Assembly: GCA_038065835.1 (NCBI GenBank)
Contig: JBBTQB010000029.1
Coordinates: 1-38,487 of the forward strand
Reading direction: 5' to 3'
DNA: 38,487 nt
From: Patescibacteria group bacterium
GTDB lineage: Bacteria; Patescibacteriota; Minisyncoccia; Minisyncoccales; Staskawiczbacteraceae
A program made the position numbers and the translations under genes. Each line of letters begins with the position of its first letter. The stretch's first letter is position 1. This document shows positions 3,316 through 38,487 of this stretch, in pieces. The notes under the pieces were generated by a model. The model did no database searches. It was given only the letters and a program-made list of their open reading frames with translations, and was not told the origin of the DNA.

Positions 3316-3321
3316 CAAAAA

Positions 3322-3531
3322 GGACCTGTAGTTAAATGGTAGAACAGCGCATTCGTCCCGATGGTGAAATTATTTTCACCATACGAGGATCCGCGATGGT
3401 TTTGGTGGGCCCGTGGTCTAACGGCATGACATCACATTCGCATTGTGGAAGTGGGAGTTCAATTCTCCCCGGGTCCACCAAAACTATCGGACATTGCGCA
3501 AATGGCGGTTCGATTCCGCCTAGGTCCACCA
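3322..3531 (+). tRNA. tRNA (Thr(CGU)-like) interrupted in the anticodon loop by a ~137-nt insert, CCA encoded
   Basis: The 5' part GGACCTG-TA-GTTAAATGGTAGAAC-A-GCGCA-TTCGT (3322-3356) and the 3' part AT-TGCGC-AAAT-GGCGG-TTCGATT-CCGCC-TAGGTCC-ACCA (3494-3531) form a cloverleaf. The anticodon call depends on the exact junction (CGT, or CGC/CAC). Confidence 0.55.
3407..3480 (+). tRNA. tRNA-Ala(CGC), nested copy, CCA encoded
   Basis: Acceptor GGGCCCG/CGGGTCC with G3:U70, anticodon arm TCACA-TTCGCAT-TGTGG, T-arm GGGAG-TTCAATT-CTCCC. Confidence 0.85.
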
Positions 3532-3595
3532 AGATTAAACTTTCAGGAATTTTGTCGATTGATTGTATTTTAACAGAGAAATGAACGGGCGACCA

Positions 3596-3635
3596 GCAAA
3601 AAATTTCCTGGGGCCAGGGGCAGGAAATTTTTTGC
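3596..3635. repeat. Family-C hairpin, copy 1
   Basis: Perfect 15-bp stem GCAAAAAATTTCCTG / CAGGAAATTTTTTGC with GC-rich loop GGGCCAGGGG. Outer ACGGG/CCCGT pairing extends the stem. Confidence 0.8.
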
Positions 3636-3690
3636 CCGTACGCCGATGGAAAAAACTTGACTTACGTATGAGTTTTGCTATGATTAACTC

Positions 3691-3975
3691 ATGAAAAAGA
3701 CAATGTTAGAATTTAGTCTTCCAGTATCTATTTTGCGGGAAGGTAAAAAATATGTCGCCTATACACCAGCGCTGGATTTGTCTACTTCTGGTAATACATT
3801 TGAGCAAGCAAAAAAAAGATTCGATGAAATGGTTTATCTTTTTTTTGAAGAAATTTTTAAAAAAGGAACTGCAAAAGAGGTTTTAATGGAATTGGGATGG
3901 CAGAAAATTCATGAAAAATGGAATCCACCAATTGTGATTTCCAATGAGTCGCAGATGGTTAAATTGTCTTACTAG
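3691..3975 (+). CDS. hicB: HicB-like antitoxin (UPF0150 fold)
   Basis: 94 aa. The N-terminus ...FSLPVSILREGKKYVAYTPALDLSTSGNTFEQAKKRFDEMV... is typical of HicB-like domains. The gene is immediately followed by a HicA-like frame. Confidence 0.7.
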   Translation: MKKTMLEFSLPVSILREGKKYVAYTPALDLSTSGNTFEQAKKRFDEMVYLFFEEIFKKGTAKEVLMELGWQKIHEKWNPPIVISNESQMVKLSY

Positions 3976-3976
3976 T

Positions 3977-4207
3977 ATGGCGGGTATAAAACCTATTCAC
4001 TAGAAAAAGTTTGAAAAATTTCTTCTTTTCGCGGGATGTAATTTTGAGCGGGAAAAAGGTGATCACAGGATTTATTGGAGAAAAGATTTAAAAAGGCCGG
4101 TAGTCATTCCTAGAGAAAGCGAATTACCAGTATTTATTATCAGAAATAATTTGAGAGTTTTAAAAATAGATACTACGGAATATCTTGAAATTTTAAAAAG
4201 AATTTAA
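3977..4207 (+). pseudogene. hicA: HicA-like toxin with an in-frame TAG at codon 9
   Basis: Reads MAGIKPIH*KKFEKFLLFAGCNFEREKGDHRIYWRKDLKRPVVIPRESELPVFIIRNNLRVLKIDTTEYLEILKRI. The KG-x-H...IP pattern resembles HicA/YcfA. There is no in-frame start after the stop, and no ORF is listed in the track. Confidence 0.55.
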
Positions 4208-4278
4208 AAGCTAATTGCCTTTTTGAAATTTTGTGCTAGATTTAGCCTAGCCCATTAACATCAAAAAAGGAGAAAAAC

Positions 4279-4827
4279 ATGTCAGAACAAGAAAGTTTAA
4301 GTACCCCCGACGGCGATTCAAAAGATGTGATAGATGAGGCATTGGGGGGACCTGATTCCGATTTGGCGCCGATGCCAAAAGAAGAACCAAGCGTTGAATT
4401 TGATGAGTTGCTGGATGAGGGGAGGCTCGAGATTAAGTCTGTGGAAGATGGAGTCGAAAAAGCAAGAGGTATCCTGGAGGATCTTTTGAAGAACAATAAC
4501 CCAGAAACACGTTCCGAAGAGATCCAAATTCTGCTAGAAAAATCCAAAATAGAAAAGGATCCCGGGCTAATGCAATTGATTGAGAGGGCTGGAAGATCCT
4601 TGGCTTTTGGAGCGGCGCTTAACGGACTTCTCAATGAAATGAATAAACGCCATAAAGGAAGGGCACTCGGCTTTATTGGCGAAAACGATGCAGCCAAGCT
4701 GGAACGCTACTTGCCAACACCAAATCTTGGAAGTAACGATGATTTGGAAAAAAACAGTAGCGACGGAAGAAAGATTGCAGATTTAGGAGAAATACTTGAG
4801 CAGATAGGAAAGCTGGCATCGGCATAA
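4279..4827 (+). CDS. Hypothetical acidic protein (GC-richer than the backbone)
   Basis: 182-aa ORF with AAGGAG 8 nt upstream of the ATG, and a hairpin plus T-run about 15-45 nt downstream. No family recognised. Confidence 0.6.
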   Translation: MSEQESLSTPDGDSKDVIDEALGGPDSDLAPMPKEEPSVEFDELLDEGRLEIKSVEDGVEKARGILEDLLKNNNPETRSEEIQILLEKSKIEKDPGLMQLIERAGRSLAFGAALNGLLNEMNKRHKGRALGFIGENDAAKLERYLPTPNLGSNDDLEKNSSDGRKIADLGEILEQIGKLASA

Positions 4828-4911
4828 CAACACAAAGAAGCCTGAGATTGCATCAAGGGCTTTCTTTTTTGTAAAACAATTAAAACACACAACTTTTTTT
4901 AGTGGCGAGAA

Positions 4912-4949
4912 GGCAAAAATTTTCTGGCCTGGGAGAGAAAATTTTTGCC
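4912..4949. repeat. Family-C hairpin, copy 2
   Basis: Stem GGCAAAAATTTTCT / AGAAAATTTTTGCC with loop GGCCTGGGAG. Orientation and architecture match 3596-3635. Confidence 0.8.
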
Positions 4950-4980
4950 CGCTGGCCGTTCGCCGCTCTGCCCCCGTTTT

Positions 4981-5016
4981 CCGCGCGCCCCGCGGGGCGC
5001 GCGGTGTCCATTTTTC
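4981..5016 (+). terminator. GC-rich hairpin with T-run
   Basis: CCGCGCGCC-CCGCGG-GGCGCGCGG followed by TGTCCATTTTTCG. Confidence 0.45.
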
Positions 5017-5125
5017 GTTTGTTTTTCAAAATCTTTCTTGCTAAAATACAATTAATCCGCTTCGGGGTTTTGCTCGTAGTAAGTTCTAACTTTTTTCAAT
5101 AAAGACCACCTCGTTAGAAGTCTGG

Positions 5126-5189
5126 ACAAAATGCTAATTACGAGACCCGGTCTCGTCAACGAGACCGGGTCTCGTAATTAGCATTTTGT
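5126..5189. repeat. Perfect 29-bp inverted repeat with a 6-nt loop, containing the family-B core ACGAGACCCGGTCTCGT
   Basis: ACAAAATGCTAATTACGAGACCCGGTCTC - GTCAAC - GAGACCGGGTCTCGTAATTAGCATTTTGT. Confidence 0.85.
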
Positions 5190-5226
5190 TGTATGATGCT
5201 TTCTATTTATCGATCTAATAGTTTAA

Positions 5227-5545
5227 CCCCGTAGAATTTAAATTACATCCGCCAAGGGCCGCGGGTCTCGTACTAAATCAGCTTTAGAAGCCCAAAAATG
5301 ATATGATTTCAAGGAGTAACGAGGAGACTTATCAGGCGGTCAGCGATAAGTCGACGAAGTTGCGACACAGAAATCAGCCATTTTTGGGCTCCCCCGAAGG
5401 GCGGGTGAATTCAGGCAAGATTCATCGTTGCTTGTCGCTCACAATGCGATTGCATTAGGCTCGCTCCTCGCGCCTTGAATCTTGCCTGAATTCTGACCGC
5501 TAAATTGATTCGGTACGAGACCCGCGGCCCAAGCTTCTAACGGGG
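5227..5545. mobile_element. ~320-nt multi-helix element (MITE-like, or an unknown structured RNA) with family-D termini
   Basis: Nested perfect helices: 5227-5236/5535-5545, 5256-5273/5513-5530 (18 bp), 5289-5300/5379-5390 (12 bp), 5407-5424/5476-5493 (18 bp), plus small hairpins. Confidence 0.5.
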
Positions 5546-5550
5546 TCCAT

Positions 5551-5586
5551 AAAAAAGCCGCTTTTTGTTCTGGGTTAAAAAGCGGC
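5551..5586 (-). terminator. Rho-independent terminator of the 5599-6573 gene
   Basis: On the minus strand: GCCGCTTTTT-loop-AAAAAGCGGC followed by TTTTTT. Confidence 0.7.
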
Positions 5587-5598
5587 AAGTGGGATAGA

Positions 5599-6573
5599 TT
5601 ATCTCACTATCGCATAGTTTGTCACGATGCGCACACGATAATTTCCCATTGATACGTTGTTCCAAGGACTTGGCACGATGTGGAGGAATAATCTGCCTTC
5701 ATCTGTAGGAATGCCATCATAGCGCTCTCCAATGATGAATTTATTTCCCTGTTCTCCAATTCGGCCTAGAAGAACTCCAGCCATGAAAGTTCCTCCTTTG
5801 CCAGCAGTAGTATAGCCCTTTGGGGTAGTCATGTACTGACCAGCTCCCTGCGGCCAAAGGTCTACTTGTCCATTAGCTGTTGCAATCAGTCTCATATTTT
5901 TTCTAATGATGATGCCGGTATCGAGCCAATCGCTCGGATTGACATGTTTTGCAGCGTCAACATTAAACTCCCTTTGGTGTTTGTTGCCTCCGCAAATTGT
6001 TCGGAGGCAAGAGAGCTTGAGACTGAGATCGCCCAGTTGACTAGAGCGCACTTTAAGTAAAGTGCCCTTTAATTGTCCTCGCGCAGTGAACTCCGCTGTT
6101 CTAACAGTATCTTGCTCATCTGCAGAAAGAAGCTCAGGTGGCGCTCTTTTTTTAATGTTCTTGATAATTTGTGTTACGCGTTTTGCGCGCTCAAGATCAT
6201 CCTTGCACTCAACCTTTTTTAAGAGCGGATACACAAAGCATTCAATATCTTCTTCTTGGAGATATTTTGTAGCTTCTTCCCGTTCCTTGTAAACACTACT
6301 GCCAAGGCTAGCGATTGAGCTCTCAATTTTTTCTCTGAGGTTAGGAGGATAGTGAATCCCAAACTCAATTTGGCAGACATCCCCCAGAGGGATTTTGAGC
6401 TCGCCATACTTGGTGGAAAGCGTAAGATCTGCTTCTAAAATAGTAACCTTCAAAAAGTCGCCGCCCCTTAGTTTAACATCAAAGCAAGGAAGCTTCTTTG
6501 GTTGAGAAGTTTCCCCTACAGATGTAGAGGTTGCTAAAAGCAGACAAACCACCATTCCAAACATGTACTTCAT
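5599..6573 (-). CDS. Secreted protein with a C-terminal PA-IL/LecA-like lectin-type domain (tentative)
   Basis: Signal peptide MKYMFGMVVCLLLATSTSVG. The C-terminus ...GQVDLWPQGAGQYMTTPKGYTTAGKGGTFMAGVLLGRIGEQGNKFIIGERYDG...GRLFLHIVPSPWNNVSMGNYRVRI resembles LecA-like domains from memory. AGGAG RBS and its own terminator. GC-richer than the backbone. Confidence 0.6.
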   Translation of the reverse strand: MKYMFGMVVCLLLATSTSVGETSQPKKLPCFDVKLRGGDFLKVTILEADLTLSTKYGELKIPLGDVCQIEFGIHYPPNLREKIESSIASLGSSVYKEREEATKYLQEEDIECFVYPLLKKVECKDDLERAKRVTQIIKNIKKRAPPELLSADEQDTVRTAEFTARGQLKGTLLKVRSSQLGDLSLKLSCLRTICGGNKHQREFNVDAAKHVNPSDWLDTGIIIRKNMRLIATANGQVDLWPQGAGQYMTTPKGYTTAGKGGTFMAGVLLGRIGEQGNKFIIGERYDGIPTDEGRLFLHIVPSPWNNVSMGNYRVRIVTNYAIVR

Positions 6574-6693
6574 TGTAGACTCCTATAAAAAAAGGTGCAG
6601 TAAAAGTGCGAACAAGAAATTTGTCGACTCCTTGATTTATCAATCATACCCATCCTTATTTAATATGCAAGCGAGTGATAAAATAGAATAACT

Positions 6694-6767
6694 GGGCTCA
6701 TAGTAAAATGGTATTACGCACCCTTCGCATGGGTGAAGTCCGGGTTCAACTCCCGGTGAGTCCACCA
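6694..6767 (+). tRNA. tRNA-Ala(CGC), second and divergent copy, CCA encoded
   Basis: Acceptor GGGCTCA/TGAGTCC with G3:U70, anticodon arm CACCC-TTCGCAT-GGGTG, T-arm CCGGG-TTCAACT-CCCGG. Confidence 0.85.
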
Positions 6768-10102: not shown

Positions 10103-10177
10103 AAAGACTCTAAAGAGTGCAGGATTCGAACTATCATCAATCTGATGATAGTTCGAATCCTGCACTCTAATGTCTTT
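10103..10177. repeat. Complete copy of the 26-nt-arm palindrome (tRNA T-arm-like sequence)
   Basis: AGAGTGCAGGATTCGAACTATCATCA-ATC-TGATGATAGTTCGAATCCTGCACTCT, extended by AAAGAC/GTCTTT. Confidence 0.9.
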
Positions 10178-11745: not shown

Positions 11746-11981
11746 TAGACCTGTTGCTTAATATTTAATATAATTGGTTCGCTCGTTCGGAGAGTAAGCA
11801 TTGCGATGCTTATTCTCCTTGCTCCCTGCTAATTATAAGATTCGTAGCGAAATGAAGTAATTTCGAGCGAGAAAAAGGAATTGCGAGGAGGCATATTGAG
11901 ACTAAATCTGGCGACGAGTAATTCCTTTTTCGCAGCCGAAATTACAAATTGCAGTAGAAGTCTCATTAAGCAACAGGTCTA
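11746..11981. mobile_element. ~235-nt multi-hairpin element closed by a 17-bp perfect inverted repeat, ending 6 nt before the hppA ATG
   Basis: TAGACCTGTTGCTTAAT (11746-11762) pairs with ATTAAGCAACAGGTCTA (11965-11981). Internal hairpins include GGAGAGTAAGCAT/ATGCTTATTCTCC and GTAATTTCG..GAAAAAGGAATT / AATTCCTTTTTC..CGAAATTAC. Confidence 0.55.
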
Positions 11982-15123: not shown

Positions 15124-15151
15124 ATTTAATCAATCAAAAATGTGTGGGGCA
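15124..15151 (+). repeat. 29-nt direct repeat, right copy
   Basis: See 14411-14439. Confidence 0.75.
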
Positions 15152-15220
15152 CCTGCCCGCATTGCTACGCCAGCCCGACAGCCTAGCAGTCTTGGCGGCG
15201 GGCAAAGCGTTGCAGGCGGG
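15152..15220 (+). repeat. Family-A hairpin element, long (69-nt) intergenic copy
   Basis: CCTGCCCGC-ATTGCTACGCC...AAAGCGTT-GCAGGCGGG with an internal GCCCG...CGGGC sub-hairpin. Confidence 0.8.
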
Positions 15221-15237
15221 TGACATTTAAACATATT

Positions 15238-15570: not shown

Positions 15571-15626
15571 AAATAATTTAGTTTTAGTGAGGTCAGACCT
15601 GCTGTATTCTTAAATCCTAAATCCTA

Positions 15627-15686
15627 CCTGCCCGCCAAAGCCCCTGCCTGTGCGTATCCGCACGCAGACAGGTTGGCGCAGGCGGG
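15627..15686 (+). repeat. Family-A hairpin element, long (60-nt) intergenic copy
   Basis: CCTGCCCGC-CAAAGCCCCTGCCTGTGCGTATCCGCACGCAGACAGGTTGGC-GCAGGCGGG. Confidence 0.8.
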
Positions 15687-15708
15687 AATCTTAAATCTTA
15701 TCGTTAGT

Positions 15709-20394: not shown

Positions 20395-20477
20395 TGCGCG
20401 GGACAGGAGTCGAACCTGCACGCCCGTGAGGGCACTGGCACCTCAAGCCAGCTCGGCTACCGTTACGACACCCGCGC
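20395..20477 (-). tRNA. tRNA-Leu(GAG), class II with a long variable arm
   Basis: Acceptor GCGCGGG/CCCGCGC, anticodon arm CTGGC-TTGAGGT-GCCAG, variable arm TGCCCTCACGGGCGT. Confidence 0.85.
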
Positions 20478-21174
20478 GTGTTTTTTGGCGTGCTATTGAT
20501 AATATATTTTCTATTTTAATTTTTTTTCTTTTTAAACAAATTACTTCACTATTGTAATAAATTCTTTCCAGTAATTTCAGAGATTCAGTCTTGGCGTACT
20601 TAAGTTGGTAAACTGAACTATTAATGCCTTTAGTAATGTGGCCTTTAATTTTTAAATTTTTTGTTATTGTTTCTTTAAGCCATTCCACATGATTCTTACT
20701 GGCAGAAACAAAAACTATATAAAACATAAAACTTGATCTCCATCGATTATCCCAATACGAGTACGATGAACCATCACCGTCAAAATGTCCCCGGAGAAAA
20801 TCAAAAAAATATTTTCTAGGAATCTTCAGCTTACTAAGAGTTTTTGATTTATTAGGAAATAAACCAATGCTTAACAAAAATTTATAAAAGTTTACATCTC
20901 CAAATTGTAATACATAATATTTCTTTTCCTCCTCTCCACCTCGAGCTTTTTTCCCAATTTTATTATTAAGGTTAAGACAAAGTTTGAAATTATCTATTTG
21001 CTCTTTGTCTTTTGAAGTAAAACTTATATGACGGCCATCTTTTATAAGACATCCATCGGTGGTAATCAGTCCTATTGCATAGGCTAGTTGAGGTGACCAT
21101 AGTGTTGATACTTTATTAAGGGGTTTCATTAGTTCATTATACCTCAAAGTATAAGTGAATACCAATCTTGTCAT
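20443..21174 (-). CDS. Free-standing double-motif LAGLIDADG homing endonuclease
   Basis: LAYAIGLITTDGCL and FLRGHFDGDGSS motifs. The 3' end of the ORF runs about 35 nt into tRNA-Leu. Confidence 0.8.
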   Translation of the reverse strand: MTRLVFTYTLRYNELMKPLNKVSTLWSPQLAYAIGLITTDGCLIKDGRHISFTSKDKEQIDNFKLCLNLNNKIGKKARGGEEEKKYYVLQFGDVNFYKFLLSIGLFPNKSKTLSKLKIPRKYFFDFLRGHFDGDGSSYSYWDNRWRSSFMFYIVFVSASKNHVEWLKETITKNLKIKGHITKGINSSVYQLKYAKTESLKLLERIYYNSEVICLKRKKIKIENILSIARQKTRAGVVTVAELA

Positions 21175-24234: not shown

Positions 24235-27200
24235 TTATTTTTTAAATTTAGAATTTGTTTGTGATTTAGAATTTGTAGTTTGAGATTTTTTGCCTATAAT
24301 ATTCTCAAACTCTTCCCTCTCTATTGTTTCTTTCTCAATTAGGGTTTTGGCAATTTTTTCGAGTAACTTTTTATGCTGCCTTACTATTTTTCCAGCTCTT
24401 ACTTCTTCACTTTTGATAATTTTTTCAATCTCTGCATCTATTTTTGTCGCCACTGCTTCAGAATAATTTCTTTGTTCTGATATTTCCCTGCCTAAAAATA
24501 CCAGCTCATCTCTGTCACCAAAAGATATTGGTCCCAAAGAAGACATGCCATATTCTTTCACTATTTTTCTGGTTAACTCAGATGCTTTAACCAAATCGTT
24601 TGAAGCACCTGTAGACATTTCACCAAATATCAGTCTTTCAGCTGAAAGTCCTCCTAACAAAGTGGCAATTTCAGCCAAGAATTGGGTCTTTGTTCTCATT
24701 TTGTTTGATTCTGAAGGAACTTGCAAAGTATATCCGCCAGCCATGCCTCTTGAGATAATGGATATTTTTCTTATTGGCTCTGTTCCGGGAATTGAGCTGG
24801 AAACCAAAGCATGTCCTGCTTCGTGATATGCAGCAATCTCCTTTTCTTTTTTTGATAAAATATGAGATTTCCTTTCAGGACCCAGTAAAACTTTTTCTAT
24901 TGATTCTAAAAATTCTCCCTGTGAAACCTGTGTTTTATTCCTTCTTGCAGCTAATAAAGCAGCTTCATTTGCCACATTTGCCAAATCAGCCCCTGAAAAC
25001 CCGGGTGTTCTTTCAGCAATTTCTTTGAAGTTTACATTAGAAGACAATGGCTTTTCTTTTGAATGGATTTTTAAGATTTCTTCTCTATCATGGACGTCTG
25101 GCAGATCCAAAACAATTTTTCTATCAAACCTGCCTGGCCTTAAGAGAGCTGGGTCTAAAATATCTCCCCGGTTGGTATTATGTAATAAGATTGGTTCCTC
25201 GCCGCCAAAAAATGCTTCATTATTACAACCGCAAAAGTCATATACATATCCGTTATAGGGAATTTTTTTAACGTTTTTTATCATTGGCCTTTCCACTGAA
25301 CCAGAAATTCTTACATCTTGATCTAATAAAGGATTTTGAGTTTTGCCGAAACCCAACCTCCATGCAATGCTTGTTTTCAATGGTTTACCATTATTAATTA
25401 CCCTTCCCTCTTTTGTTTTAAAAGAATGAATATACCCTTTAAATCCGTGCATTCTGAATAGCCAGTTAAGCTCTATGATCAGCTGTTTGCTCATAGAAGT
25501 AACTTCTCCTCTATCTCTTTTATCAATATGACCATCTCCATAAAAATATCCCTTAAAATACTCTTTAAAATATTCGAATGGTGCTTCAAAAAGGAAAGAA
25601 GGTACATGCTTATTTTTTGCCCCCTTGCCACAATAAAAAGAAAAGAAATTAGCTAGTGGGGTGCATTGGTACACAATATTTACCGCACTGTTGCTTGTCA
25701 GCCTTACAGTATGAGGTTCGATATTAAATATATTTTTCATTAACATTTTAACATCTTGTATTTTTGCAGTTTCCTTCCTATTGAAACAGAAGTCTACTTC
25801 ATTTCTTGCATATCCCTCGGCAGTATAGTAACCAAGAAGACGCATTAATTCCGGAGTAACTTTTACGGTTTCTGGCAAGACATTTTTATGCTGGTAGTAA
25901 TTCCTGGAAAGTTGCCTTGGTCCGCATATCCCTTGTTGCCATTTTCCAATAGTCCTCTGTGAAAATCCAAGATCTTTACCCAATTGGGTCTGGGAAATTT
26001 CACCAACGTGAGCTAAAGCATATTGATAATTAAAATGTATCGGCTCGAATCTTTCAAAAAGTGGTTGCCATACAGAAAGTTCAAGATTAAAACTTGTATT
26101 AAATGTATGCGCTCTAATTTCTTTTTTATGAGAAGTTCTATTAGCTTTATATGGCATGTTTACCAGAATGTCTCCTTGGACAAGGTCAGCAACTGCTTTT
26201 GTTTTTAATCCACTACGAGTTCTTACAAACACCGAATGGTTTCCGGTTGCTTTGATTTTTCCGCCAACATATTCAATTTCGTAAATTTCTTTTACTTTAT
26301 GCCGAAACACACTTCGCACCTTCTTGAAGGCACTATGAGAAAAGTAGACACTATTTTTATTGCGTCCAGTTAATATTTTTTTTTCAAACCCCAACACTTC
26401 AATTTCAGGAGAGTCTTTTTCTACATTTTCTTCACCCTCTTGGTAATAAGGATCAATAACCTGAGAAATTGGCAATAATTTGTAATTATTATTTTTCTTT
26501 ATTAGGACCTGGGTATCTTCAGTAACACTCGCTGCCATAACAATTACTCCAGACTCTCTTTCAAAACCATCCATTTCAACCAAAATCATATTTAATGTTT
26601 GCTCTCTCTCATCATGTCCTCCGCCAATTCCAGCTCCCCTGTGGCGCCCAATGGCATCTAGCTCATCAATAAAGATTATTGACGGGGAAGCTTTCTTTGC
26701 CATAGAAAATAAATCCCTCACTCTTGCCGATCCCACTCCAACAAACATTTCAACAAATTCTGACCCCGAAATGGAAAAGAATGGTACATTGGCCTCACCA
26801 CTGACGGCACGCGCCAATAAAGTTTTTCCCACTCCAGCAGCCCCTAAAAGCAGTACGCCCCTTGGTATTTTTGCTCCCATTGCTAAATACTTTTTGGGAA
26901 ACTTCAAAAAATCTACAATCTCTATCAGCTCTTCTTTAGCTTCTTTTAATCCTGCAACATCCTTAAAAGTTATTTTTTGTTTATCATGGCCCTCAGCTCC
27001 AAAAATTCTGGCTTTTGCCCTTGTAAAATCAAAAACTTGCATAGCCCCAGATTTTGTTTGCTTTAGCATTGTCCAAAGGAAAAATCCAATAAGAAGCAAT
27101 GGTAAAACCCCGTAAAGTAAAGCAGGAAACAACCAAGTCCACATGCTTTGTTGTTCTAGTTCAGCTGATATTTCAACTTTTTGTAATTTTACTGGATTAG

Positions 27201-27468
27201 CTCCCAAATTAACCAAAACTTCCGACAATACAGAGTTTGTCTCTTTCATTGAAATGGCTTTTGATTCATTATTATAAGTTATGGCTATGCTCTCGCCAGA
27301 AACAGCAATTTTCTTAACTTTATCCTGATTTATTTCAGAAACTAACTGGGAAATTGATATTTGATTTGACTCGCCTGTTGGAAAATAAAACAAGCTGAAA
27401 ACACCCCCTATGGCCAGGAATATTAGTACAACAAAAATAAAGTTTTTAATAAGTGGATTTAGTTTCAT
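24235..27468 (-). CDS. ftsH: ATP-dependent zinc metalloprotease FtsH, intein-containing
   Basis: Walker A GAAGVGKT, Walker [12 protein letters not shown] ...[12 protein letters not shown], zinc site HEAGHAL. The preferred start is MKLNPLIKN (27468). The track ORF extends to 27576 across the divergent promoter. Confidence 0.9.
25177..26529 (-). mobile_element. FtsH intein (451 aa) with a LAGLIDADG homing endonuclease domain
   Basis: The host sequence VIVMAA|...|[12 protein letters not shown] is interrupted. Intein blocks: SVTEDTQVL (Ser1), [17 protein letters not shown] and [15 protein letters not shown]...ILLHN followed by Thr+1. The codon phase was checked at both junctions. Confidence 0.85.
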
Positions 27469-27519
27469 ATTGACAATATAACACTCTTTTAAATATCTTT
27501 CAACCTCAAATAGGTGGTA

Positions 27520-27548
27520 TTGACACATTGTAGTGTATATGATATCAC
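27520..27548 (+). promoter_or_regulatory. Promoter TTGACA-N14-TGA-TATCAC, second copy of the shared block
   Basis: See 8439-8467. It lies between the divergent ftsH start and the orphan gene. Confidence 0.55.
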
Positions 27549-27650
27549 TAAAATAGTACCTCACATTACACTTCATGCGATTTTGCTCATACTTGTGGGT
27601 AAAATCGTGTGAAGTGTTTCGAGATTTCCCATTTCCGAAAGGATAAGTCC

Positions 27651-32964: not shown

Positions 32965-35900
32965 ATGGCTAAAGAAGAACCAGAAAAAATACAAGCAATA
33001 GGACAAGTAAAGAAAAGAGAAATAGTGCAAGAGCTTAAAGAGTCATACATTGACTACGCAATGTCGGTCATTGTTGCTCGCGCCCTGCCCGATGTAAGAG
33101 ATGGCTTAAAGCCCGTCCATCGCAGGATTTTGTTTGCGATGTTGGAGGAAGGATTACGACACAACGCAAAGTTGAGAAAGTCAGCAACCGTGGTGGGAGC
33201 TGTTTTAGGACGCTATCATCCACATGGAGACATTGCAGTTTACGACTCAATGGTAAGAATGGCTCAAGATTTTAATATGAGATATCCCCTTGTTCAGGGT
33301 CAGGGAAATTTCGGCTGTTTTACTAAAGATATTAAAGTAAAACTTACCGACGGAAGAGATTTAACATTTGAAGAGTTAGTAAAGGAATATCATCAGGGCA
33401 AGAAAAACTTTGCTTTTACTGTTGATAGTAATGGGAAAATAGTTATTGCAGAAATTAAGCATCCGAGAAAAACCATAGAAAACGCTCCAATCATTAAGAT
33501 AACACTAGATAATGGAGAAACAATAAAATGTACACTTAATCATAAATTCATGCTGAAAAATGGAACTTGTAAAGAAGCTCAATACCTGACTGAAGGAGAA
33601 TCGCTCATGCCTCTTTATACAAAACTTTCAGAACGAGAAAATGATATTAATTTAGGGGGCTATGAATTAGTTTTTCAACCCAATTCAAACTCATGGTATT
33701 TTACTCATATGCTTGCAGACGAATGGAATATTGAAAATAACGTGTATGAAAAATCACAAGGTAGAATACGTCACCATATAGATTTTAATAAATTAAACAA
33801 TAATCCTAATAATATAAAGAGAATCGGATGGAAAGAACATTGGCAAATACATTATACAATTGCTTCAAGGAGGCATAGTGAAGATGCTCTATATAGAGAA
33901 AAAATAGCAAAAGGAAGAAAAGATTTTTGGGCTAATGCTGAAAACAGAAAAAAACATTCTGAAAGAATGACCATAAGAAACATTAAGAATTGGAAGAAAA
34001 AAGATTATAGAGAAAATATGAGAGCATTTTTAAGTGAGATAAATAAAAAATACTTGGCAGAGCACCCTGAAAGAATTGAGGAAATAAGAAAAACTGCTTC
34101 AAAGACCATGAAAAGATTGTGGCAAATTCCAGAGTATAAAAGTCTATTTCATAAGAAAATTGTCGCAAGCAATAAAAGAAGGGTTACTAATCTAACAGGA
34201 AGGTCTAAATTTTTGAGAATCTGTAAATACTTATCAAACAATAACTTAGAGATAAATAAAGAAAATTATGAGAAAATCAGAGTAGATATTTTCGGAGGGG
34301 CATGTTTCACGACATGGGATTTAGGTATTGGCAAATACTTTAAAGATAATAAAGATTCAGTACTATTTTCAATCAATCAAAATCATAAAGTTATAAAAAA
34401 AGAATTTTTAAATAAAAATGAAGATGTTTATGACTTAACGGTGGAAGTAACTCATAATTTTGCTTTATCTTGTGGGATATTTGTCCATAATTCGAATGAC
34501 GGGGATTCGCCGGCAGCGCAAAGATACACAGAGGCGCGTCTTTCTTCTATAGGCGAAGCAATGTTGGCTGATATTGAAAAGGATACTGTAAACTTTGCAG
34601 ATAACTATGATGGGACAAGAAAAGAACCTACTGTCCTACCCTCTCCTTTACCTCAGCTTCTTTTAAATGGATCGTTGGGGATTGCTGTTGGCATGGCAAC
34701 TAATATACCCCCTCATAATTTAACTGAGTTGATAGACGCTCTCATTTATTTGTTGGATTATCCAAAATCAGAGACATCTGATTTGTTCCAATTTATACAA
34801 GGACCTGATTTTCCTACCGGAGGCGTAATTTACGACCAAAAAGAAATTATTTCTGCCTACTCTCAAGGTAAGGGCTCAATCATAATGAGGGGCAAAGCTG
34901 AAATAATTGAAAAAGAAAAAGATGGATCTGAACAAATTGTAATATCAGAGCTTCCTTATCAGGTTTTAAAATCCAGCTTAGTTGAGAATATGGCAAGTCT
35001 GGTTTCAGAGAAAAAGGTTGAGGGCATAAGAGACATAAAAGATTTATCAGATAGGCAGGGAATGGCTATTATTATTGATATTAAGAAAGGTTTTGATCCT
35101 CAGAGAGTTTTGAATAGGTTGTATAAGTTTACTAATCTTCAAAAAACATTCCATTTAAACTTATTGGCTCTGGTTGACGGAATCCAGCCAGAAATTCTTT
35201 CAATTTCTGATGTTTTAAAATACTTCATAGTGCATCGCACTGAAGTCGTAACAAGAAGGACTAAGTTTGACTTGGAAAGAGCTAAAGAAAGAGCCCATAT
35301 ATTAGAAGGATTAATGGTTGCCCTAAAAAAGATTGATGCTGTTATTGCCTTGATTAAAAAGTCAAGAGACCGGGAAGATGCAAAGAATAACCTAATCAAA
35401 AAATTCAGGCTTACTGAAAGGCAGGTAATTGCCATATTGGAAATGAAGCTGCAGACTTTAGCTGGATTAGAAAGAAAGAAAATTGAAGATGAGCTAAAAG
35501 AGATTTTAGAAAAAATCAAAGAATTTACCGCTATTTTAAAAAGTCCAGAAAAGTTAAAAAATATTATCAAGAAAGAGCTGCAGGAATTAAAGGAAAAGTT
35601 CGGGGACAAAAGGAAAACAAAAGTTATAAAGCAAAAATTAGGTGAAATTTCAGAAATTGACTTAGTGCCCTTAGAAGATACCATGGTAACTTTGACTACC
35701 GGAGGGTATATCAAAAGGATTAACCCAGCTACTTATAAAATCCAAAAGAGGGGAGGCAAGGGAATTATGGGAATGAAGACCATGCAAGACGATATTGTAG
35801 AACATTTCCTTTTTGCCTCGACTCATGATAACCTATTGTTTTTTACAAATTCTGGAAAAGTTTTTCAAACTCAGGTTTATGAAATTCCAGAGGGAACAAG

Positions 35901-36684
35901 GGTAGCCAGGGGTAGGGGGTTGATGAATTTTTTGGAAATCTCAGCTGAGGAGAAAGTTTTGTCACTAGTGCCTCTGGAAAAATTAGAAGTAGGGCAAGAA
36001 AGAAACGAAAAATATTTAATGATGGTTACCAAAAACGGGCGGATTAAAAAAACATCCTTGGAAGAGTTTAAGAACGTAAGAAAATCAGGGATAATAGCTA
36101 TAAAATTAGAAAAAGGAGACTTGCTGAAAAAAGTTGTTAAAACCAGTGGCCAAGATGACATAATTTTGGCAACAAAAAATGGTTTATCCATTAGATTTAA
36201 AGAAAAGGACATAAGACCGATGGGCAGAGCAACAGCAGGGGTTAGAGGCATAAGGCTTAAGAAAGGACCTGCCCGCAGTGCTACAGGCGTTGCAGGCGGG
36301 GATGAAGTCATTGGAATGGACGTCATCTCGGCAAATGGCAAAGAGCAAATGGCAAATGGTAAGAAAGTAAAGCAGTACTTTTTGGTTGTAATGGAAAATG
36401 GATATGGTAAAAGAACAGAAATTTCCCAGTATAAAGTTCAAGGAAGAGGAGGTTCTGGGATAAAAACTGCAAATATTACTTCAAAGACTGGCAGAATAGT
36501 TATGTCCTGCATTTTAGATGACTCAACAGAAAACGAAGACTTGATAGTAATATCTCAAAAAGGCCAAGTTATAAGGACGGTTACAAAATCAATATCTTTG
36601 CTTGGTAGAGCAACGCAAGGAGTTAGAATAATGAGGTTGGACCAGGGCGATAAAGTTGCTTCTGGAGCTTGTTTTAAGGAGTAA
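32965..36684 (+). CDS. gyrA: DNA gyrase subunit A, intein-containing
   Basis: ...RALPDVRDGLKPVHRRIL..., YHPHGD, ...AAQRYTEARL (active-site Tyr), and C-terminal beta-pinwheel repeats. Confidence 0.92.
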   Translation: MAKEEPEKIQAIGQVKKREIVQELKESYIDYAMSVIVARALPDVRDGLKPVHRRILFAMLEEGLRHNAKLRKSATVVGAVLGRYHPHGDIAVYDSMVRMAQDFNMRYPLVQGQGNFGCFTKDIKVKLTDGRDLTFEELVKEYHQGKKNFAFTVDSNGKIVIAEIKHPRKTIENAPIIKITLDNGETIKCTLNHKFMLKNGTCKEAQYLTEGESLMPLYTKLSERENDINLGGYELVFQPNSNSWYFTHMLADEWNIENNVYEKSQGRIRHHIDFNKLNNNPNNIKRIGWKEHWQIHYTIASRRHSEDALYREKIAKGRKDFWANAENRKKHSERMTIRNIKNWKKKDYRENMRAFLSEINKKYLAEHPERIEEIRKTASKTMKRLWQIPEYKSLFHKKIVASNKRRVTNLTGRSKFLRICKYLSNNNLEINKENYEKIRVDIFGGACFTTWDLGIGKYFKDNKDSVLFSINQNHKVIKKEFLNKNEDVYDLTVEVTHNFALSCGIFVHNSNDGDSPAAQRYTEARLSSIGEAMLADIEKDTVNFADNYDGTRKEPTVLPSPLPQLLLNGSLGIAVGMATNIPPHNLTELIDALIYLLDYPKSETSDLFQFIQGPDFPTGGVIYDQKEIISAYSQGKGSIIMRGKAEIIEKEKDGSEQIVISELPYQVLKSSLVENMASLVSEKKVEGIRDIKDLSDRQGMAIIIDIKKGFDPQRVLNRLYKFTNLQKTFHLNLLALVDGIQPEILSISDVLKYFIVHRTEVVTRRTKFDLERAKERAHILEGLMVALKKIDAVIALIKKSRDREDAKNNLIKKFRLTERQVIAILEMKLQTLAGLERKKIEDELKEILEKIKEFTAILKSPEKLKNIIKKELQELKEKFGDKRKTKVIKQKLGEISEIDLVPLEDTMVTLTTGGYIKRINPATYKIQKRGGKGIMGMKTMQDDIVEHFLFASTHDNLLFFTNSGKVFQTQVYEIPEGTRVARGRGLMNFLEISAEEKVLSLVPLEKLEVGQERNEKYLMMVTKNGRIKKTSLEEFKNVRKSGIIAIKLEKGDLLKKVVKTSGQDDIILATKNGLSIRFKEKDIRPMGRATAGVRGIRLKKGPARSATGVAGGDEVIGMDVISANGKEQMANGKKVKQYFLVVMENGYGKRTEISQYKVQGRGGSGIKTANITSKTGRIVMSCILDDSTENEDLIVISQKGQVIRTVTKSISLLGRATQGVRIMRLDQGDKVASGACFKE
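33316..34491 (+). mobile_element. GyrA intein (392 aa) with an HNH-type endonuclease region
   Basis: The host sequence QGQGNFG|...|SNDGDSPAAQRYTEARL is interrupted. Blocks: CFTKDIKV (Cys1), TLNH, RHHIDFNKLNNNPNNI (HNH-like), VYDLTVE...GIFVHN followed by Ser+1. The codon phase was checked. Confidence 0.85.
36268..36300 (+). repeat. Family-A hairpin element, 33 nt, in frame in gyrA
   Basis: CCTGCCCGC-AGTGCTACAGGCGTT-GCAGGCGGG, encoding PARSATGVAGG in the C-terminal domain. Confidence 0.75.
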
Positions 36685-38427: not shown

Positions 38428-38437
38428 TTTTATTATT

Positions 38438-38463
38438 AGAGTGCAGGATTCGAACTATCATCA
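38438..38463. repeat. Arm of the 26-nt palindromic repeat, copy at the contig end
   Basis: AGAGTGCAGGATTCGAACTATCATCA, identical to 10114-10139 and the reverse complement of 26-51. Confidence 0.8.
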
Positions 38464-38487
38464 GATTGAGAATCTCAAAAATGAGAT

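Follow-up and report, generated by a model that had tools for sequence, protein, structure and literature searches.

What are the densely nested inverted repeats at positions 5227-5545 of the window analysed here (a 38,487-nt stretch of a Patescibacteria genome of the candidate phyla radiation (CPR) from Hainich groundwater, as judged from Pfam and tRNA content and source records): the mark of an RNA gene, a mobile DNA element, or a cluster of separate repeats? An earlier note on this DNA described them as one element built from four perfect nested helices, and preferred a young palindromic element, akin to a miniature inverted-repeat transposable element (MITE), over an ancient RNA. Our analysis points, with fair but not full confidence, to DNA that codes for nothing and belongs, as a member or as a decayed composite, to a family of small cut-and-insert mobile elements bounded by the terminal repeat CCCCGTTAGAA. 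The element is most likely a non-autonomous or remnant member of this little-described family.

An insert in cca and its empty site

The terminus CCCCGTTAGAA occurs exactly at 1744, 1801 (minus strand) and 5535 (minus strand), with a one-mismatch copy at 5109, against a chance expectation of 0.54 in the whole window. The first two copies are the ends of an in-frame insert in cca. A syntenic CPR relative (contigs L069-L071; P0002) was found through a 64%-identical homolog of the 324-aa protein encoded next to the element; its cca is 82% identical, 54 residues shorter and lacks three in-frame inserts. At the first of these, the window reads AAAACTGG[CCCC...GGGG, 68 nt]CTGGCAGC and relative contig L070 reads AAAACGGGCAGC, an empty site. 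The insert that the earlier note had given as 70 nt (1743-1812) is therefore real, with a corrected size of 68 nt plus a 4-bp duplication, CTGG; together these make 72 nt, or 24 codons. The comparison with an empty site that the note had proposed was clean at this locus. The 68-nt insertion is a product of the same machinery as the family of the 5227-5545 element.

Related 68-nt inserts are present in six other genomes (82% mean column identity), and a few two-sided changes among them keep the extension of the terminal helix. Two more in-frame inserts distinguish the window's cca from that of the relative (1967-2053 and 2213-2242; residues about 147-175 and 229-238), the latter holding a small palindrome, CCAGCCTTAGGCTGG.

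The terminal-repeat family

Searching a single genome from each species for CCCCGTTAGAA-N30-60-TTCTAACGGGG gave at least 120 loci in Patescibacteria, Pirellulales (Planctomycetota), Phycisphaerae, Omnitrophota, Nitrospirota, Desulfobacterota, Gammaproteobacteria and others; among viral contigs, only three carry the terminus pair. What defines the family is a terminal inverted repeat of 11-12 nt, CCCCGTTAGAA(R), together with a 4-bp target-site duplication. The interiors of its members are mostly unrelated, and only the 11-13-nt termini are common to them across phyla. In 73 of 126 elements the 4-mers on the two sides are the same (permutation mean 8.1, maximum 17), and in only one are they reverse-complementary instead, indicating a 4-bp target-site duplication with the preference G|YNNR|C. 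Element length is 2 mod 3 in 83 of 128 members, such that element plus duplication adds whole codons. About 45% (57/128) occupy open frames of 150 codons or more; of these 57, 53 are 2 mod 3. Through its repeated in-frame presence in housekeeping genes, the family supplies streamlined genomes with protein loops that are specific to a lineage. Nested, composite and forward-forward-reverse (F-F-R) arrangements of half-sites are frequent, and nested or composite members with matched duplications are common. The common terminus, with a 4-bp duplication seen both family-wide and at cca, supports the earlier proposal of a single mobile family for the 5227-5545 element and the cca insert.

Inspection of the genes adjoining solo half-sites for a transposase revealed only ordinary genes, and long terminus pairs in L099 and L164 enclose ordinary or small open reading frames (ORFs).

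Some members show further features. In a Saccharibacteria metagenome-assembled genome (MAG), a 5S rRNA-like sequence lies between a CCCCGTTAGAA half-site and, by eye, a near-perfect right half-site (L303 999-1332). A Patescibacteria MAG holds a tandem array of four 83-nt family units with CAAG after each (L311 3993-4319), the right termini being intact and the left termini degenerate in units 2-4. The interior of a 59-nt Pirellulales subfamily (L083, L094, L113, L127, L177 and others) is conserved and carries, on one strand, a -10-box-like sequence followed by a Shine-Dalgarno-like GGAGG; from these motifs, this planctomycete subfamily may be a portable promoter or ribosome-binding site.

Extent and present state of the element

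The earlier note held the termini to be common to the element and the cca insert, which is true of the right terminus (identical) and not of the left. The left half-site at 5227, CCCCGTAGAA, is a 10-mer that falls one T short of the complement of the right arm, and an alternative, CCTCGTTAGAA, begins at 5109. Two left half-sites thus face a single exact right one, the F-F-R arrangement also present at other family loci. In a DNA fold of 5100-5555, the right terminus pairs over 14 positions with 5108-5121 and not with 5227-5236, and by eye 5109-5127 agrees at 15 of 19 positions with 5527-5545 read as its reverse complement. This predicted pairing makes 5109-5545 more likely to be the full unit than 5227-5545. 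The longer unit encloses a 64-nt perfect palindrome, and its length plus 4 is divisible by 3, as in most family members. Its left flank, ACCA, resembles the right flank, TCCA, and the relative reads G|TCCA|C at the site of 5546-5549, which fits the target preference of the family.

The view that this is the best candidate for a full-length member does not hold: the left end is decayed, there is neither a clean duplication nor a nuclease ORF or its remnant, and the members that look full-length are the ~310-nt carriers of a GIY-YIG gene described below. The decay of the left end and the presence of two left half-sites against one right half-site suggest that the element is probably no longer mobile.

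Long family members often carry a GIY-YIG nuclease gene

A metagenome scan found terminus pairs 285-315 nt apart at 97 loci, many of which are two short or nested elements. An internal half-site is missing from 23 of 104 long pairs, and 15 of these 23 have an exact duplication. Many ~310-nt members encode on one strand, as their only gene, a protein of 85-95 aa with a GIY-YIG domain (Pfam PF01541, E 1e-15 to 1e-18), the nearest solved structures being the UPF0213 proteins 1ZG2 and 1YWL (PDB, E 8e-8). Searches of NCBIfam gave no match for two proteins of the terminus family and only a sub-threshold match for a protein from L069, which has other termini. Using a hidden Markov model built from seven of these proteins, we detected GIY-YIG in 11 of 25 clean long elements (those without internal sites) and 15 of 103 overall, and in none of 156 neighbouring controls of equal length. 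Carriers include Parcubacteria, Moranbacteria, Neomarinimicrobiota and Thermodesulfovibrionia, with exact duplications in 8 of the 12 inspected. Other long members are non-coding and strongly structured (L226, L248, L260, L254). The first three are G+C-rich, with fold z-scores of -9 to -12, and it is this class that the 5227-5545 element resembles; at 319 nt, or 437 nt when counted from 5109, it agrees in size with the long members. A tblastn search for a decayed GIY-YIG gene inside it gave no signal.

The L069 gene mentioned above (70 aa, within 4980-5220) adjoins rpsO and is bracketed by a different inverted repeat, CCCCGCCCTCT / AGAGGGCGGGG, which indicates that the repeat-gene-repeat layout recurs with other termini. 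At that rpsO position the window's genome has a hairpin paralog of the element instead of the GIY-YIG gene.

The closest precedent is the Ssn (SsnA) system, in which single-domain GIY-YIG nucleases of ~94 aa and of the cd10448 clade cut single-stranded DNA beside the hairpin repeats NTS/SRM (Chenal et al. 2025, PMC11893778). In Neisseria these repeats occur in dRS3 and NIME mosaics; they flank ssn genes and are amplified in the genome, with NTS inside genes in only 2% of cases. The authors remarked on the insertion sequence (IS)-like repeat-gene-repeat layout and left open whether repeat-ssn-repeat units are mobile elements (PMC11893778). The CCCCGTTAGAA family likewise has a ~90-aa single-domain GIY-YIG gene between inverted repeats, flanked on both sides in the 11 of 25 clean long members though not at the gene-less element studied here, and its repeats also occur without a gene, as hairpin-forming intergenic mosaics. 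The family departs from the Ssn repeats in its 4-bp target duplication, in the existence of an empty site and in strongly favouring in-frame positions within ORFs; the window, moreover, holds no nuclease gene. By tying miniature GIY-YIG genes in an IS-like layout to real target-site duplications, it offers a testable system for the mobility of repeat-ssn-repeat units.

We infer that the GIY-YIG nuclease, or else a transposase, recognises the termini and mobilises non-coding members in trans; by analogy with Ssn nucleases, it may act on hairpins extruded in single-stranded DNA. In the 5227-5545 element, hairpin repeats (a REP-like unit with the core ACGAGACCCG, and the arm 2 module, which has another copy in the genome) take the place of the gene, so that it resembles a BIME/NIME-type mosaic within family termini. 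A bolder proposal, which we regard as doubtful, is that the ~310-nt CCCCGTTAGAA-bounded elements are autonomous, their nuclease performing both excision and insertion with 4-bp duplication; the 5227-5545 element and the in-frame inserts would then be non-autonomous derivatives, with hairpin cargo serving as extra recognition modules. If true, these would be the smallest self-mobilising DNA elements known, and their transposition chemistry would belong to none of the DDE, HUH, serine and tyrosine classes.

Interior repeats and the possibility of a repeat cluster

The strongest competing explanation, unlikely but not negligible, is that 5227-5545 is not one element. Independent REP/BIME-like hairpins accumulated between convergent terminators would adjoin what is left of one or two short CCCCGTTAGAA elements, or have overwritten it, and the nesting would come from inverted copies of short repeats and not from a transposable unit. 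The setting agrees with this. The element lies in a 770-nt spacer separating convergent ORFs (4279-4827, plus strand; 5599-6573, minus strand) that contains several more hairpins, and one hairpin type brackets neighbouring genes (3596-3635, 4912-4949). Copies of a short, dispersed repeat form the arms of the 18-bp helix: the core ACGAGACCCG, with 10 matches in the window against 0.27 expected, is present both in these arms and in the 5126-5189 palindrome, and the left arm (5256-5273) has the 11-mer CGGGTCTCGTA in common with that palindrome. Such a dispersed palindromic unit, with several hairpins in a convergent spacer, is characteristic of REP/BIME sequences. The mismatched flanking 4-mers and decayed left terminus are also in keeping with a cluster.

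A colinear paralog points the same way. It lies immediately left of the window start, adjoining rpsO at a contig break (L061 28-205, 78% identical), and comprises the right half of arm 1 (5369-5386), all of arm 2 and then AATTGAT. It folds as a long hairpin (z -5.5), but has only the right-hand modules of the element and ends in a different palindrome family. Against a mere cluster, two left half-sites and one exact right half-site within 440 nt are very improbable by chance, the right end pairs over 14 positions with 5108-5121, the size is that of the family's class of about 310-340 nt, and nested or composite members whose duplications match are common at other loci.

The perfection of the helices had been taken as a sign of youth, which is doubtful in view of perfect inner helices beside decayed termini and of a 78% paralog that keeps arm 2 through compensated changes. 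The palindromes have probably been renewed at the DNA level, most simply by inverted duplication or templated correction. Nested cut-and-paste insertions were rejected as the source of the inner helices, no inner palindrome having flanking duplications. By reasoning from the known attC layout, an integron attC reading of GTTAGAA/TTCTAAC was also rejected, the order of core sites relative to the hairpin being inverted. The exact 18-mer of the main helix gave 55 single chance matches in genome contigs, from high-GC genomes and with no homolog among them; the paired-helix pattern GGGTCTCGTAC..GTACGAGACCC had no match in viral or metagenome collections, nor did blastn find one among phage records.

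The 26-nt-arm palindrome family in which the paralog ends (AGAGTGCAGGATTCGAACTATCATCA) is a multi-copy repeat distinct from the CCCCGTTAGAA family. A perfect copy lies at 10103-10177, between a UPF0102 gene and nusA, and single arms stand at both window ends (24-54; 38435-38469), where every public assembly breaks. Extension by way of the S15 and pilin genes showed that, at both ends, each available assembly runs out no farther than 200 nt from the repeats. Such palindromes break short-read CPR assemblies at predictable places.

RNA gene or DNA element

It is improbable that the element is a gene for a novel structured non-coding RNA, such as a scaffold or guide RNA with its promoter in the promoter-like site at 5023-5052. 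The predicted stability is extreme, with an ordered multi-way junction: the minimum free energy (MFE) of the element as RNA is -158.8 kcal/mol (z -11.9), and none of 100 shuffles is as stable. The site itself, TTTTCA-18-TACAAT, is sigma-70-like and lies on the plus strand upstream of the element, facing it. In our own comparison, the arm 2 hairpin is kept in the paralog by two to three changes compensated on both sides (TTCAGG/CCTGAA becomes TTTTG/CAAAA; AATGC/GCATT becomes GATGCC/GGCATC). Yet the reverse strand folds nearly as well (-149.9 kcal/mol), and G-U pairs number 0 in the 59 bp of named helices and 4 of 116 in the whole MFE structure. The all-Watson-Crick helices and the similar stability of both strands argue against an RNA gene. 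As DNA, the element folds with -86.9 kcal/mol (z -11.2).

Among the Rfam 15 covariance models, only tRNAs reach the gathering score in the window, and at E up to 10 the region 4800-5650 yields only chance hairpin matches to miRNA and snoRNA models. No plus-strand terminator was found after the element. The region is missing from the closest relative, its modules are multi-copy and assembly-breaking, and its termini belong to a DNA element with target duplications. All this suits palindromes formed at the DNA level better than an evolved RNA, as the earlier note had preferred, and the element matches no known Rfam family. The 182-aa ORF upstream, considered for the part of a protein partner, proved to be an ORFan: a search of 5.8 billion proteins gave no homolog. 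The note's count of four perfect nested helices needs amendment, since three are perfect and the terminal helix is one of 10 bp with a bulge and not an 11-bp perfect one. The element is non-coding, as had been stated: the sole ORFs that overlap it are mechanical ones of 51 and 49 aa, neither of which matches any family.

A 2.2-kb block missing from the relative

In place of window positions 3316-5544 the relative has 20 nt, and homology resumes at 5545 (in L070). Contained in the block are tRNA-Ala and fragments of tRNA, an ORF of 94 aa, a hicA pseudogene, an ORFan and the hairpin cluster. Both edges carry GGTCCA, and the 20 nt in the relative resemble a tRNA remnant; the GGTCCA microhomology makes gain and microhomology-mediated loss equally possible.

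The element could instead mark, as a structured att-like or resolution site, the boundary of an integrated island of 2.2 kb beside tRNA-Pro, which we rate as slightly less probable still than an RNA gene. The exact absence of the block, the tRNA-derived fragments with a tRNA 3'-end-like GGTCCA at both edges, and a typical cargo of hicA (with its presumed antitoxin) and an ORFan without homologs speak for an island. A scan of the window found no integrase or recombinase, the relative shows signs of deletion in its tRNA remnant, such that the difference may be a loss through GGTCCA microhomology, and the CCCCGTTAGAA family already explains the right terminus. A fold-back chimera of short reads is very improbable: short-read contigs do break repeatedly in the spacer (4998, 5020, 5032, 5155/5160, 5464), but the NCBI MAG contig, an independent ENA assembly (L056, differing from the window at 8 positions, all outside the element) and a Logan contig (L057, spanning 5160-6700) agree base for base over the element, which is therefore no assembly artefact.

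Within the block, tRNA-Ala(cgc) appears to split another tRNA-like sequence, whose halves flank it at 3325-3358 and 3489-3531. The hicA toxin pseudogene (3977-4210) has an in-frame stop. Homologous hairpins at 3596-3635 (GCAAAAAATTTCCTG...) and 4912-4949 (GGCAAAAATTTTCT...) bracket the hicA/ORFan segment in a repeat-gene-repeat layout.

Evidence against the preferred explanation and comparison with known repeats

Several points weigh against the preferred explanation of the 5227-5545 element. Its flanks are not a matched 4-bp duplication (TTAA/TCCA for the 5227 end; ACCA/TCCA, a 3/4 match, for the 5109 end), and its left terminus has an indel at 5227 or a mismatch at 5109. No empty-site allele of the element alone was found, the relative lacking the whole of 3316-5544. 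Its interior has no homolog in genome, viral or metagenome collections, and the compensated changes in arm 2 would also be expected from RNA constraint. Among the window ORFs scanned there is neither a GIY-YIG gene nor a transposase. The SRM motif HGTCWY..YYVSBRH..WNVSBRG..RNCYNB of the Ssn system has no match on either strand of the window (shuffle mean 0.04), and the CCCCGTTAGAA termini do not fit it. GIY-YIG enzymes are hydrolytic nucleases and are not known to have a strand-transfer chemistry that would give a 4-bp duplication.

Like bacterial MITEs such as Correia, RUP and Nezha, members of the family are small and without coding capacity, with terminal inverted repeats, target-site duplication, presence/absence polymorphism and nesting. 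The family differs from them in its mostly unrelated interiors with termini common across phyla, in coding relatives that carry a GIY-YIG nuclease and not a DDE transposase, and, at the 5227-5545 element itself, in the lack of a duplication that matches. The palindromic elements of Rickettsia (RPE), some tens of nt to about 150 nt long, lie in frame in protein genes and are tolerated as extra loops. The cca insert behaves likewise, with different sequences and hosts and with defined termini and a duplication; the 5227-5545 element is intergenic. REP, BIME and REPIN sequences, associated with RAYT (a Y1 HUH enzyme), are also dispersed short palindromes that form mosaics between convergent genes and, as inverted pairs, long hairpins. 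In the window, no GTAG/CGTC-tagged REP consensus was seen and no RAYT gene is among the ORFs scanned; REPINs make no target duplications, unlike the CCCCGTTAGAA family. Ends of the piggyBac/IS1380 type have CC-initial inverted repeats and a 4-bp duplication; the start CCC(C)..TAGAA and the 4-bp duplication at a T..A-type target are a resemblance that is only a lead, and no such transposase lies beside any family member examined.

In topical and terminus-string searches of the literature the CCCCGTTAGAA family seems undescribed, the Ssn paper being the sole close precedent. The 5227-5545 element alone is of modest interest as a decayed, hairpin-laden mobile remnant; the interest lies in the family that its termini expose. 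A present role, as a barrier or terminator between convergent genes or as a substrate of a hairpin-binding nuclease, is speculative.

Features of the locus and its surroundings

Table 1. Positions of the termini, helices, palindromes and related inserts in the window
Feature	Position	Remarks
Element as first delimited	5227-5545	319 nt; nested helices; no coding capacity
Longer candidate unit	5109-5545	437 nt; ends CCTCGTTAGAAG and CTTCTAACGGGG
Right terminal inverted repeat, TTCTAACGGGG	5535-5545	exact family terminus
Left half-site, CCCCGTAGAA	5227-5236	decayed, one T deleted; flank TTAA
Alternative left half-site, CCTCGTTAGAA	5109-5119	1 mismatch; flank ACCA (5105-5108)
Right flank, TCCA	5546-5549	putative target-site copy
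18-bp perfect helix	5256-5273 / 5513-5530	perfect inverted repeat
Arm 1	5289-5390	12-bp closing helix 5289-5300 / 5379-5390; inner stems of 7 bp and 8 bp
Arm 1, inner 7-bp stem	5304-5310 / 5370-5376	TGATTTC / GAAATCA
Arm 1, inner 8-bp stem	5326-5333 / 5345-5352	
Arm 2	5407-5493	18-bp perfect helix 5407-5424 / 5476-5493 and tip stem
Arm 2, tip stem, 5 bp	5443-5447 / 5452-5456	AATGC / GCATT
Perfect palindrome	5126-5189	64 nt, 31-nt arms; two copies of the short unit ACGAGACC(C/G)GGTCTCGT
Terminator-like hairpins	4981-5004 and 5557-5586	one per convergent gene
Further hairpins filling the same spacer	4912-4949, 4981-5004, 5126-5189	
Right edge of paralogous copy	1-54	rest is L061 1-146, upstream; ends in arm of 26-nt palindrome family
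In-frame family member in cca	1744-1811	68 nt; both termini exact
Terminal helices of cca insert	1743-1757 / 1798-1812	perfect 15 bp; include one flanking base on each side
Left duplication copy of cca insert	1740-1743	CTGG
Right duplication copy of cca insert	1812-1815	CTGG

The window is AT-rich (37.6% G+C). The 324-aa protein encoded on the minus strand to the right of the element (5599-6573) has no Pfam domain, and its nearest homologs besides that of the one CPR relative are from Planctomycetota (Gemmataceae; 45-50% identity). Its gene is G+C-richer than the genome, suggesting horizontal transfer.

Selfish elements are unusually abundant in the window, among them an FtsH intein with a LAGLIDADG domain, a GyrA intein and a free-standing LAGLIDADG ORF overlapping tRNA-Leu (24235-27576, 32965-36684 and 20443-21174, respectively). 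A second nested-helix element (11746-11981) lies directly upstream of an H+-pyrophosphatase gene; its 17-bp perfect outer helix (TAGACCTGTTGCTTAAT) surrounds two inner hairpins, and it has no Rfam match at the gathering score. G+C-rich islands at 15138-15231, 15621-15694, 36260-36315 and 1174-1310 have the motifs CCTGCCCGC ... GCAGGCGGG in common. Some of them lie inside ORFs (the GyrA gene; the start of a pterin dehydratase ORF), and these islands may be another family of small inserts.

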